Shown in pieces: positions 29,484 through 33,576 of a DNA stretch of 64,000 bases. Source of the DNA: Candidatus Latescibacterota bacterium (GTDB taxonomy: Bacteria; Latescibacterota; UBA2968; UBA8231); the NCBI GenBank assembly GCA_965200315.1, contig OZ241362.1, forward strand, positions 1,088,001 through 1,152,000, in the 5' to 3' direction. The notes beneath the pieces were generated by a model, which was given only the letters and a program-made list of their open reading frames with translations, was not told the DNA's origin and did no database searches. The position numbers and the translations under genes are program-made. Positions within the stretch are counted from its first letter, which is position 1; every line of letters starts with the position of its first letter.

Positions 29484-30176
29484 TTAGCTTTCAGATTCTA
29501 GCTCGCTGATGCGGTCGCGGACCTGGGCCGCCTGCTCGTAGGCCTCTTGGGCGATGAGCCAGTCCAAGTGCGCCTTGAGCTGTTCCAATCGGCTTATCGG
29601 CTCGCCCGTCTCCGGATCCACGAACGCCTCCGACTTCTTCGCGACTTGCTCGCGCTCGGCCTCTTCGTCCTCTACCGGCACATCCGGTGGCACAGCGGCT
29701 TGTTCGTCCTCGACCGCTGTGCGCTCGTCGGAGTGTTCCAGCGGCTGGCCGGCCGCCTCCATGACCTCTGGGGTCAAAAAGAGCGGCACACCCAAGAGCG
29801 TGGCCACAATCATGCCATCGCTGGGACGACAGTCGAGGTAGAAGGACTGGCCCTGAGCTTGGACCAGCAGGTACGCGTGGAAAACATCCTCTTTGAGCGT
29901 GTGAACCACCAGCTTGTGGACCACGGCGTCGATTCGCTTGAGCAGGTTGCACAACAGGTCGTGCGGCAGGGGCCGCGGCAAGGAGATTTTGCGGAGCGCC
30001 ATGGCGAGAGCTTGGCCCTCAAAGTGGCCGATCGTGATGGGCACCACGATGTTTTCCGTACCCTTGAGCAACACCAAGAATTTCTGCGGCATGCCCAAGC
30101 CCTGTTCCGAGTCTGGGTAGGGGTACATGTCGAAAATGTACACTGGAATTAAATGGCTTCCTTCGTCTTTCATCAC
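29484..30176 (-). CDS. Bifunctional nuclease (DUF151) with C-terminal UVR domain
   Basis: PITIGHFEGQA, RPLPHDL and DCRPSDG; EAYEQAAQVRDRI. Confidence 0.92.
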   Translation of the reverse strand: MMKDEGSHLIPVYIFDMYPYPDSEQGLGMPQKFLVLLKGTENIVVPITIGHFEGQALAMALRKISLPRPLPHDLLCNLLKRIDAVVHKLVVHTLKEDVFHAYLLVQAQGQSFYLDCRPSDGMIVATLLGVPLFLTPEVMEAAGQPLEHSDERTAVEDEQAAVPPDVPVEDEEAEREQVAKKSEAFVDPETGEPISRLEQLKAHLDWLIAQEAYEQAAQVRDRISELESES

Positions 30177-30253
30177 TTAGCGAACCCTTGCCTTATATAA
30201 ATTGCTGTATTTGTTCAGTAATATAGGCTTTTGCCGAGCAAATACAATTTTCT

Positions 30254-30973
30254 TTAAATCAAGCCGCGCTCCTTCAAGCTGAGAAAATCGTCGCTGCCGA
30301 TGATGAGGTGGTCTAGCACGTCAATGCCCATGATTTCGCCGGCCTGCACTAAGCGCCGCGTCAGGTTGATGTCGTCTTGGCTGGGCGACACGTCACCAGA
30401 GGGGTGATTGTGTGCCAAGATCACGCTGGCCGCAGCCTGCGCTACAGCCGTGCGAAAGACCTCGCGCGGATGCACGATGGCCGAAGATAGACTGCCGATG
30501 GACACGATTTCCTTGTGGATCACCTGATTGCGGGCGTTGAGATACAGGCAGAGAAAGTGCTCGCGCTGCTGATCCTTGATGTCGGACAGCATGGACAGCG
30601 CGTCGCCAGGCGCACTAATCACCGGCCGCACCCCCAAGCCCTTGTGCAATCCGCGGCGCGCCAATTCAAACGCCGCGACCAAAACCCCGGCCTTGGCCTT
30701 GCCCAGCCCTTTGATCCGGCTCAATTCCCCCAAATCCATATCTACCAGTGATTCCTTGGGGTAATCGGCGAGGATGCCCTCGGCCAAGTCCAGCACGTGC
30801 CGACCGCGATACCCCGTCCCCAAGGCTATGGCCAACAATTCTTGGTCTTTGAGCGCCTGCGGCCCCAAGCGCGCGAGCCGCTCCCTTGGCAGTTCGTCGC
30901 GGTGGACAGGCGGGCCCTCGCCCACTGTGCGGGTGGCAAAGTTGTAGTCAATGGGCTGAATTTGCGTTGGCAC
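30254..30973 (-). CDS. radC: RadC family JAB-domain protein
   Basis: PRERL...ELLAI, VHPREVF, AHNHPSG and VLDHLII; GTG start with RBS aaggagg. Confidence 0.95.
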   Translation of the reverse strand: MPTQIQPIDYNFATRTVGEGPPVHRDELPRERLARLGPQALKDQELLAIALGTGYRGRHVLDLAEGILADYPKESLVDMDLGELSRIKGLGKAKAGVLVAAFELARRGLHKGLGVRPVISAPGDALSMLSDIKDQQREHFLCLYLNARNQVIHKEIVSIGSLSSAIVHPREVFRTAVAQAAASVILAHNHPSGDVSPSQDDINLTRRLVQAGEIMGIDVLDHLIIGSDDFLSLKERGLI

Positions 30974-31071
30974 GGTGCGTTCCTCCTTAGGCAAAGCTGT
31001 AGCAAAAAAACCACGCGAATGTAGCACCTAGCCCCCACAAGCCGCTCGGCACTAGACGCAATCAACATACA

Positions 31072-31087: not shown

Positions 31088-31143
31088 GCCTTGCTCCACC
31101 CCAGCCCCCCTCCTATATTTTTGTGCATTACCCTCCACTGCCG

Positions 31144-33576
31144 ATGTCTAACCCTCGCTTCGTCTTGGCCCTAACCCCGCTTTCCCGCCTGCTGCTGGCC
31201 GCACTGAGTGGGGTCTTGCTCTCGCTGGCTTTTCCCAGTCACCCAGATCACCCGCTCGCCTTTCTCTATCATCCGCTCTGGGCCCATTGTGCGCTGGTGC
31301 CTTTGCTGCTGGTGCTGAAAGATCGCGGCTTCAAAGCCGGCTTTGCCGCGGGCTGGATCAGCGGCTTGGTTTGGAACCTACTATCCCTGTACTGGGTCGC
31401 CTATACCCAAGGCGGGGGGCTTGCCGTCGTCGGGGGCACCGGGCTGATGGCCGCTTATTTGGGCCTTTTTACCGGCCTCTGCACTGGGCTGTTCAACGCG
31501 CTCGCCGCGCGGTGGGGTGCAAAGGCGCTCGCGCTGCTGCCTTTGTTGTGGACCGGGCAGGAATATCTGCTCTCGCTCGGGGAGTTGGGATTTCCTTGGC
31601 TCCTATTGGGGCACAGCCAAGCGGCCCTGCCACACTTCATCCAGTACGCCACTTGGACCGGCGTCTTTGGCGTCTCCTGCTGGGTCGTCGGCCTCAACGC
31701 GCTGTTTTACTTGGCGCTCGTCGAGCGGCGCGTTTTTCTCGTGGGTGTTGCCTTGAGCTATCTCTTGCCTTGGGTTCACGCTCAGAGCGCGATGGCGACC
31801 ACCGTCCCGGACGAGAGCCTGCGCATCGGCCTGATCCAGCCGAACACTACATACGCCGACAAGTGGGGTCCCAACGGACTGGAGCGCACTTTCTCAGCTC
31901 TAGCCACACTCTCGCGCCAAGCGGCCAAGCGCGATCCCGAGCTGCTAGTCTGGCCCGAGACTGCCGTGCCGTGCGATCCTGTGCGCCGGGCTGGTTGCCG
32001 AGCCCGCGTCCAAGCACTCGTCGAGGAGCTGGACATCCCCTTGCTGACCGGCGCGCCGCACACCAACTACAACGCGGCCTTCTTCGTCCAGCCCGGAGCC
32101 GTAACTCTGCCCTCATACGCCAAGATGCACTTAGTGCCCTTTGGCGAGCGGACGCCTTACCGAGACGCCATCCCCCTGCTGCGCGACATCGACTGGACCC
32201 GCCTGACCGGTGACCTCGGCCCGGCCGAATTCGCGCGCGGCACAGAGCACGCGGTTTTTGCTCATCCCCGGCACCCCTTTGCCGTGCTCATCTGCTTTGA
32301 GTCCATCTTTCCCGATCTGGTGCGCCAGCACGTGGCGGCCGGAGCGCACCTGCTGGTCAACATCACCAATGACTCGTGGTTTGGCCGCAGCGCAGGGCCC
32401 TATCAGCACGCGCTCATCAACGCCATGCGCGCCGTTGAAAACCGCACGGCCATCGCCCGCGCCGCCACCACCGGCATCTCCCTGTTCATCGACCCGTTTG
32501 GCCGCACCTACGAAGCGACCGACCTTTTCACGCCTGCGGTCGCGGTCGCCACCGTGCCAGTCGGCCAACCCGCGACCTTTTACACTCGGCACGGCAACAT
32601 CTTCGCCTACGGCTGCCTGCTAGTCGTCCTAGGCGCTTTCGTCTCCCGCTTTCGCAAGCCGCGATCCACCCGCGAGACAGTAGAAACCAACCATGAACCG
32701 GAAGCTGATCACGACCCAGCAGCCCCCTACGACTCAGACTCGCCCCGAGAAGTCAACATGCCCTTTCTCGACCACCTCGAAGAACTCCGCTGGCGCATTC
32801 TCAAAGCCCTAGCCGCGCTCGTCGTGGGCGCGGCAATTTGCTTCGCCTTCTCCGATTCGATTATGCAGATCTTGACCCAGCCATACGAAGAGGCCGTCTT
32901 CAGCTTGGAGAGCGAGCAATCCTCGAGCGTGGTACGGGCGGTCAAAAAGCTGGTGAGCCAGTGGTTGGGCCAGCCCGATGCTGCACCGGCACCGGACGCG
33001 CCCACAGCCGACTTGCCCCCAGCGCGCCGACTACAAGCCCTCCGACCCATGACCTACTTCTTCATCAGCCTGCAAATCGCCTTTGTCGGCGGGCTACTGT
33101 TGGCGCTGCCGGTCATCTTCTACCAAGCTTGGTGCTTTGTTGCCCCGGGGCTTTTACAGCGCGAGAAACGGCTCACGCTGCCCATTATCTCGCTGAGCGT
33201 CCTCTGCTTCTCGGTCGGCGCACTGATCGCCTATTACATCGTCCTCCCGCTCGGGCTGCGCTTTTTCCTCGCGCTAGAGCCGCCCGACATGACCTCGCAA
33301 TGGGCGGCCGACGAGTACATCGGCTTTGTGCTGCGGCTGATCGCCGGCTTTGGCATCGTCTTTGAGATGCCGGTGCTGTCGCTCTTTTTGGCCAAGGTCG
33401 GAGTGCTGACCGCCGCGCGGATGCGCCATATCCGCCGCTACGCCATCATCGGAATCTTCGTCCTCGGCGCGATCTTCACGCCGCCCGATCCGGTCTCCCA
33501 ACTCCTGATGGCCCTGCCCTTGCTCCTGCTCTACGAAATCAGCATCTGGGTCTGCAAAATCGCCGAGCGCAAATAG
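31144..33576 (+). CDS. lnt-tatC: Apolipoprotein N-acyltransferase Lnt fused in frame to Tat translocase TatC
   Basis: Lnt motifs GFPW, WPETA, KMHLVPFGE, ICFE, NITNDSWF and RAVEN; TatC motifs MPFLDHLEELR, APGL, FEMP and TPPDPVSQ; no stop codon between them. Confidence 0.9.
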   Translation: MSNPRFVLALTPLSRLLLAALSGVLLSLAFPSHPDHPLAFLYHPLWAHCALVPLLLVLKDRGFKAGFAAGWISGLVWNLLSLYWVAYTQGGGLAVVGGTGLMAAYLGLFTGLCTGLFNALAARWGAKALALLPLLWTGQEYLLSLGELGFPWLLLGHSQAALPHFIQYATWTGVFGVSCWVVGLNALFYLALVERRVFLVGVALSYLLPWVHAQSAMATTVPDESLRIGLIQPNTTYADKWGPNGLERTFSALATLSRQAAKRDPELLVWPETAVPCDPVRRAGCRARVQALVEELDIPLLTGAPHTNYNAAFFVQPGAVTLPSYAKMHLVPFGERTPYRDAIPLLRDIDWTRLTGDLGPAEFARGTEHAVFAHPRHPFAVLICFESIFPDLVRQHVAAGAHLLVNITNDSWFGRSAGPYQHALINAMRAVENRTAIARAATTGISLFIDPFGRTYEATDLFTPAVAVATVPVGQPATFYTRHGNIFAYGCLLVVLGAFVSRFRKPRSTRETVETNHEPEADHDPAAPYDSDSPREVNMPFLDHLEELRWRILKALAALVVGAAICFAFSDSIMQILTQPYEEAVFSLESEQSSSVVRAVKKLVSQWLGQPDAAPAPDAPTADLPPARRLQALRPMTYFFISLQIAFVGGLLLALPVIFYQAWCFVAPGLLQREKRLTLPIISLSVLCFSVGALIAYYIVLPLGLRFFLALEPPDMTSQWAADEYIGFVLRLIAGFGIVFEMPVLSLFLAKVGVLTAARMRHIRRYAIIGIFVLGAIFTPPDPVSQLLMALPLLLLYEISIWVCKIAERK

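Follow-up and report, generated by a model that had tools for sequence, protein, structure and literature searches.

An in-frame fusion of the apolipoprotein N-acyltransferase Lnt and the twin-arginine translocation receptor TatC conserved in Latescibacterota

Does a single open reading frame (ORF) that spans both the apolipoprotein N-acyltransferase Lnt and TatC, the receptor in the machinery of twin-arginine translocation (Tat), encode a genuine fusion protein, and does such a protein tie lipoprotein N-acylation to Tat export? The question is raised by a gene lying in a 64,000-nucleotide stretch of Candidatus Latescibacterota bacterium (the window; assembly GCA_965200315.1, contig OZ241362.1, positions 1,088,001 to 1,152,000), which is part of a closed 5.36 Mb contig of a metagenome-derived genome. 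A first-pass annotation, made from the letters alone, had described a complete Lnt with an intact E-K-C triad, a linker and a complete TatC in one frame, and had taken this as a Rosetta-stone sign that the translocon is where folded Tat lipoproteins undergo maturation. The architecture was borne out by Pfam, NCBIfam and structural alignments, and some association of the two functions is supported by class-wide linkage of the genes, by repeated fusion and by candidate Tat lipoproteins; the maturation of Tat lipoproteins at the translocon did not find the same support.

The frame encodes 817 residues from a GTG at 31123 or 810 residues from an ATG at 31144, and the 810-residue form is identical (100%) to the public-collection protein P0002. 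The Pfam scan placed the Lnt domains LNT_N and CN_hydrolase in the first part of the protein and TatC at residues 550-799 (238.3 bits, profile positions 1-208 of 208), and otherwise returned just a sub-threshold match to DUF7534. Both NCBIfam equivalogs were recovered well above their cut-offs, with 318.5 bits for lnt (TIGR00546, cut-off 132.9) and 213.4 bits for tatC (TIGR00945, cut-off 132.7). Residues 22-496 aligned with the solved Lnt chains 6NWR, 5VRG and 5N6H (E ~1e-33); in this alignment the WPE, K-x-HLVPFGE, C-F-E and ND-x-WFG motifs are seen, and E279, K334 and C391 fall on the catalytic-motif positions of solved Lnt (WPE, K-HLVPFGE and C-Y-E). In the same way, the second half aligned with Aquifex aeolicus TatC (4B4A, 4HTS; E ~1e-44) from Aquifex residue 1 onwards, MPFLDHLEELR facing MPLTEHLRELR. 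The helices of the AlphaFold2 model, together with the alignment to 4B4A, are compatible with a six-helix core, and the HLEELR motif is present with the invariant E554, which may be the equivalent of the E. coli signal-binding glutamate. Among 24 diverse fused proteins (41-93% identity), E279, K334, E342, C391, M546-L552 and E554 are invariant in all 24, and the E-K-C triad is kept in 53 of the 53 Lnt sequences compared. The fusion is, then, a genuine, complete Lnt and a complete TatC in one frame. Its topology is also coherent, as had been proposed, with Lnt homology running through the last helix, which is predicted to bring the chain back to the cytoplasm, and TatC homology starting at the first TatC residue.

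The AlphaFold2 model, calculated from a 24-row alignment, has a mean predicted local distance difference test (pLDDT) score of 72.9, the Lnt half being confident and the TatC half moderate. This full-length model comes without inter-domain confidence, and the packing of the domains is not readable from it. A complex prediction between Lnt residues 1-520 and TatC residues 546-817 gave a score of 0.00, which counts neither for nor against binding.

The junction was compared with the contigs of four other runs over 32300-33100, an interval that includes 32630-32760, where the first-pass annotation had suggested verifying the reads. Contigs of runs X2 and X5, one of them from a different study, cover the whole interval with 1 and 2 substitutions and no indel, and the TatC ATG at 32758 is spanned by contigs of two RNA libraries (32682-32932 and 32719-32909); these libraries may hold DNA and their coverage is no proof of transcription. 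The variants across the junction are a V→A, a synonymous and a P→S change, none of which makes a stop. The first-pass annotation had held that separate genes in relatives together with a stop or indel in the linker would speak against a fusion; split genes do occur in part of the relatives, yet the contigs across the linker show neither stop nor indel. Upstream, 18-21-base stretches at 32449-32479 recur in an unrelated contig of X2 and X5 and produce a locally raised depth with loose ends, probably through a chance match of GC-rich sequence.

The distribution of the fusion was determined by searching the TatC half in 168 Latescibacterota genomes, 161 of which gave a match, and by asking for a TatC inside an open frame longer than 700 residues (a long frame). 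Such a frame was found in 84 of the 161 genomes. It occurs in 25 of the 29 genomes of this genus (one cut by a contig end) and 7 of 44 in the rest of its family, f1, in all 31 genomes of family f2, in 21 of 22 of family f4 (the remaining one at a contig edge) and in none of the three of family f3. A large protein database holds about 50 clusters at 85-100% identity with LNT_N, CN_hydrolase and TatC, and a further set with all three Pfam domains at 50-55% identity and 844-975 residues. The carriers are Candidatus Latescibacterota metagenome-assembled genomes, some submitted under Gemmatimonad- labels yet placed in the same genus in the genome collection. In a profile scan of species genomes, both halves were matched together only in this lineage among the best 80 of 585 relatives, the other phyla in this set showing one half only, and the ESM Atlas contains one cluster of this architecture, with 53 members and most frequent in Latescibacterota. 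Where names are given to the fused proteins in the database, they are just "apolipoprotein N-acyltransferase"; a search by name would therefore score these genomes as lacking TatC. The first-pass annotation did not know of a described Lnt-TatC protein, and a full-text literature search, judged on listings and abstracts and with subscription journals largely outside it, found no account of a natural Lnt-TatC fusion. Lnt-TatC is thus a real, conserved domain architecture of two well-known proteins, apparently undescribed.

The TatC half carries an insertion of about 40 residues in periplasmic loop 1, which is found in family f1 alone, in fused and split forms alike, as judged from a TatC match length of 272 residues in f1 against about 232 in f2, f3, f4 and the other classes. 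Family f1 is also the family with an extra free-standing Lnt. In some other Latescibacterota classes (G042, G065, G058), TatC lies in open frames of 553-653 residues with no Lnt nearby; these could reflect different extensions at the N-terminus or frames that are open by chance.

The linker is stop-free and its length, estimated at about 38 residues in the first-pass annotation, is exactly 38 (residues 508-545). With pLDDT below 50 over residues 514-547, it is predicted to be disordered. Linker length ranges from about 21 to 62 residues in this genus (hand count, with boundaries as for the 38 of the window), and the linker is built of PEADHD/PEVDHD-like hexapeptides; it is in frame in 39 of 39 fused loci, some genomes having been fetched twice so that the loci are not all independent. 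The linkers of f2, f4 and genera g21/g22 are not related in sequence. Tandem Repeats Finder returned nothing on 32500-32900, the repeats of the linker being too few and too degenerate, and their repeat character is visible only through comparison with relatives. Upstream of the TatC ATG, no GGAG, GAGG or AGGA was found within 5-18 nt, in agreement with the earlier remark that no obvious ribosome-binding site precedes MPFLDHL. This says little, because the fusion gene's own start likewise has no such Shine-Dalgarno (SD) core, nor have 63% of first starts in the genome; the core is present at 37% of first starts compared with 10% of internal ATGs.

The split relatives indicate how the fused frame came about. 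In those of this genus the lnt stop is followed by an in-frame ATG one codon later, and in the split form of a neighbouring genus the ATG overlaps the lnt stop as ATGA. The split TatC proteins have a hydrophilic N-extension of 24-33 residues ahead of an invariant (N/D)M(P/A)FLDHLEELR, the counterpart of the linker in the fused forms being this extension. From this anatomy of the split junctions, the fusion is therefore a loss of the stop codon in a translationally coupled lnt-tatC pair. The pair itself is a feature of the class. In DNA sampled within about 4 kb of tatC, lnt lies directly upstream in 20 of 23 in-class loci, the three exceptions having it about 2 kb off (G131), about 7 kb off (G127) or far off (G030). 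In the 17 genomes sampled from other classes, lnt was never close to tatC. A tree of 48 Lnt domains was built by a quick maximum-likelihood search, with support from the Shimodaira-Hasegawa-like approximate likelihood ratio test (SH-aLRT) only and a midpoint root. In it, the tatC-linked Lnts fall together with the single-copy Lnts of other classes, and no fewer than three changes of the fused state are required on branches with good support, namely in the f2+f4 clade, in genera g21/g22 and in most of this genus. On this tree the fusion appears to have arisen or reverted at least three times. The lnt-tatC linkage itself arose once in this class and suggests that lipoprotein maturation and Tat export are in some way connected.

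We then consider the copy numbers of both proteins, since the first-pass annotation had proposed looking for further lnt and tatC genes. The genome contains one TatC, the fused copy, and one TatA-family gene far from the fusion. Lnt, in turn, is present twice, in the fusion and as a divergent free-standing protein. In the tree, the free-standing Lnts make up a separate, long-branched clade that is confined to f1 and f3 (branch length 1.19, support 100); a single Lnt is found in 13 of 14 genomes of other classes. In 7 of 7 genomes of f2 and 6 of 6 of f4, several of them closed, the fused Lnt is the only Lnt above the cut-off. The free-standing Lnts of G127 (C1:1726990-1728192) and G157 (C96:19389-20573) lie in open frames of 812 and 791 residues, far longer than Lnt, and could be another fusion or a mere open GC-rich frame. 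The coordinates of all features are collected in Table 1.

Table 1. Position of the lnt-tatC fusion gene, its parts and other genes of the genome considered here
Feature	Coordinates	Strand	Basis or remarks
lnt-tatC fusion gene	31123..33576	+	stop codon 33574-33576
Lnt N-terminal transmembrane domain LNT_N, residues 29-194	31207..31704	+	PF20154, 98.8 bits; helices in AlphaFold2 model
Lnt periplasmic CN_hydrolase domain (nitrilase-fold), residues 235-480	31825..32562	+	PF00795, 99.7 bits
Catalytic codons E279, K334, C391	31957-31959, 32122-32124, 32293-32295	+	alignment to solved Lnt
Last Lnt transmembrane helix, residues 493-509	32599..32649	+	AlphaFold2 model; alignment to solved Lnt as far as residue 496
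Hydrophilic acidic linker, residues 508-545 (SRFRKPRS...SPREVN)	32644..32757	+	degenerate PEADHD-type repeats
Complete TatC, residues 546-817, start MPFLDHLEELR	32758..33573	+	Pfam, NCBIfam, alignment to Aquifex TatC
Insertion of ~40 residues in TatC periplasmic loop 1, residues ~590-632	32890..33018	+	gap against Aquifex TatC; low pLDDT
Free-standing Lnt	C1:563869-565317		503 residues, 337-338 bits, E-K-C triad intact
TatA-family gene	C1:4967332-4967484		PF02416, 74.4 bits
Lgt-like gene	C1:4350348-4351088		97.6 bits, below TIGR00544 cut-off of 118.9
MsrP candidate	C1:1821125-1822114		400 bits
DctP-type binding protein	C1:1251510-1252631

The explanation that we favour, as a probable one that is far from assured, is a genuine bifunctional membrane protein with both halves active, derived from a coupled gene pair by a fusion step that is most likely tolerated. 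The product would sit in the inner membrane as one polypeptide. Its N-terminal part is a catalytically intact Lnt, made of seven helices, the nitrilase-fold domain in the periplasm and a further, eighth helix that ends in the cytoplasm; from there a tether, acidic and disordered, would run on the cytoplasmic side to the N-terminus of a complete TatC. Such a fusion would be possible because the Lnt C-terminus and the TatC N-terminus are on the same side of the membrane. The fused TatC would be the only Tat receptor of the cell and would work with the single TatA encoded elsewhere. Both halves presumably keep their usual jobs, lipoprotein N-acylation and the recognition of twin-arginine signal peptides, and the tether may merely enforce 1:1 synthesis and proximity in the membrane, from which any benefit would come. 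The gene derives from the coupled lnt-tatC pair through loss of the lnt stop codon, and the fusion step is most likely a tolerated, perhaps mildly advantageous, outcome of tight coupling and not a precise machine. Engineered E. coli TatB-TatC fusions support Tat transport (PMC5102672), so that TatC tolerates the attachment of another membrane protein at its N-terminus.

Several points weigh against this explanation. Some close relatives keep separate genes (4 of the 29 genomes of this genus and 37 of the 44 others of f1) and thrive in this state, so the fusion is not required. According to PMC5102672, TatC functions as an oligomer, and an eight-helix Lnt on each TatC protomer may not fit such an assembly. 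Internal initiation at M546, giving free TatC, or cleavage in the linker may also occur, either being compatible with the sequence. Finally, the count of origins rests on the quick, midpoint-rooted tree with SH-aLRT support only.

A more specific alternative, which follows the first-pass annotation, is that Lnt, held at the Tat translocon, N-acylates folded Tat lipoproteins where they emerge, so that in f1 the free-standing Lnt would serve Sec and the fused Lnt the Tat lipoproteins. The class-wide linkage and the repeated fusion favour it, and the two Lnts of this genome, both catalytically intact by motif, allow such a division of labour. Tat lipoproteins were looked for with a strict regular expression applied to all ORFs and read by eye, which is not a validated predictor. 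A first, more permissive expression had been dropped after returning 415 hits, mostly spurious GC-rich ORFs. About 12-14 credible twin-arginine signals were found in the genome, 3 of them with a canonical and 2 with a non-canonical lipobox. The five candidates are an ActB-type iron-sulfur protein (969 residues; TIGR04519, 41.3 bits, cut-off 20.6), MsrP, a DctP-type binding protein of a tripartite ATP-independent periplasmic (TRAP) transporter, a SorA-like molybdenum enzyme and a flavin adenine dinucleotide (FAD) oxidase; MsrP and DctP each combine a twin-arginine motif with a canonical lipobox (LAGC and LAAC, respectively). The combination of twin-arginine motif and lipobox is unusual for the MsrP and DctP families. 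According to the review PMC8396450, ActB of alternative complex III has a triacylated cysteine.

The Tat lipoproteins that the first-pass annotation had proposed to count thus exist as candidates, yet they number at most five, compared with 204 ORFs matched by a generic lipoprotein pattern, which over-estimates the true figure. Moreover, the order of the lipoprotein pathway is Lgt, then LspA, then Lnt (PMC3850990), and Lgt and LspA must act before Lnt, yet lspA and the only Lgt-like gene, a divergent Lgt, are both far from the fusion locus. In f2 and f4 the fused Lnt cannot be specific for Tat, and must serve Sec lipoproteins too, because it is the sole Lnt there. The length of the linker is free to vary, many relatives keep two genes, and Tat lipoproteins are known from organisms in which lnt and tatC are separate (PMC3850990, PMC2945643). 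With these points we regard this alternative as unlikely. Together with the disorder of the 21-62-residue linker and the second Lnt, which the first-pass annotation had not known, they leave the specific claim of a maturation at the translocon unsupported.

Slightly less credit still is given to the possibility that Lnt and TatC form an obligate unit in the class. This would place an N-acyltransferase on every Tat-receptor protomer, so that cofactor lipoproteins of the ActB or MsrP type become triacylated on leaving TatC, or else would make the Lnt membrane domain a TatB-like scaffold in a system with a single TatA-family gene. Either version seems to us rather improbable.

The fusion could also exist at the gene level only, two proteins being made through internal initiation at M546 or through proteolysis of the linker; in function the locus would then remain an lnt-tatC operon. 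No fused lineage shows variation at M546 or in its flanks, M546 aligns with the native start methionine of Aquifex TatC, the linker is predicted to be disordered, and, with so many first starts in the genome devoid of an SD core, the missing SD at 32758 is no bar to initiation, although it counts against it. The same methionine is, on the other side, conserved in the split relatives, whose ATG beside the lnt stop lies 24-33 codons upstream; M546 may therefore be a structural residue. Furthermore, the frame survives many changes of linker length and at least three independent origins. We consider the production of two proteins to be quite improbable, and return to the bifunctional protein as the preferred explanation. 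That the frame is an artefact of assembly or sequencing, two ordinary genes having been joined by an overlooked stop or frameshift, is a reading for which the metagenome origin of the genome is the sole point that can be entered. It is practically dismissed by the in-frame fusion in 84 of the 161 genomes, many of which are complete as one closed contig, by the roughly 50 highly similar protein clusters with all three Pfam domains and by the indel-free contigs of other runs and another study.

Compared with known systems, each half of the fusion is a full-length homologue of the separate Lnt (5N6H, 5VRG, 6NWR) and TatC (4B4A, 4HTS) proteins, from which it differs in being one polypeptide with a 38-residue acidic linker and the family-specific loop-1 insertion. 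The closest precedent is Lnt-Ppm1. PMC3850990 describes a mycobacterial two-domain protein (Rv2051c / BCG_2070c) and separate ppm2(lnt)-ppm1 genes in M. smegmatis and C. glutamicum. In both cases the N-terminal module is an Lnt whose cytoplasmic C-terminus carries another protein of envelope biogenesis, fused forms occur beside split ones among relatives, and some genomes have a second Lnt homologue. The partner is, in contrast, a cytoplasmic polyprenol-phosphate-mannose synthase there and a six-helix membrane receptor here, and no Ppm-type (glycosyltransferase) domain was detected in the Pfam scan of the fusion protein. The TatB-TatC constructs (PMC5102672) likewise join a membrane protein to the cytoplasmic TatC N-terminus through loss of the upstream stop. 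They are laboratory-made and their partner is a genuine Tat subunit, whereas the present fusion is natural and its partner is an enzyme of another pathway.

The genes around the fusion have other themes. On the minus strand, the divergent neighbours (29484-31027) encode a RadC-like JAB protein and a protein that has a bifunctional-nuclease domain and a UVR motif, and on the 3' side a Zn-dependent dehydrogenase and an aspartate-dehydrogenase-like gene follow. None of these neighbours is tied to protein export.

Lnt and TatC are each well understood, and no link between them is described in the literature searched. Their fusion is nevertheless maintained in 84 genomes, and in families f2 and f4 it is the only copy of both functions. 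It therefore offers a natural test case for two questions, whether lipoprotein N-acylation is spatially coupled to Tat export and whether TatC oligomers are able to hold a large membrane passenger. If the fusion is merely tolerated, it is a clean example of an operon that turned into a fusion when the stop codon separating two polytopic membrane proteins was lost. If Lnt and TatC were instead an obligate unit, in either of the versions given above, this would be the first natural case in which a protein translocase is coupled to an enzyme that modifies lipoproteins.

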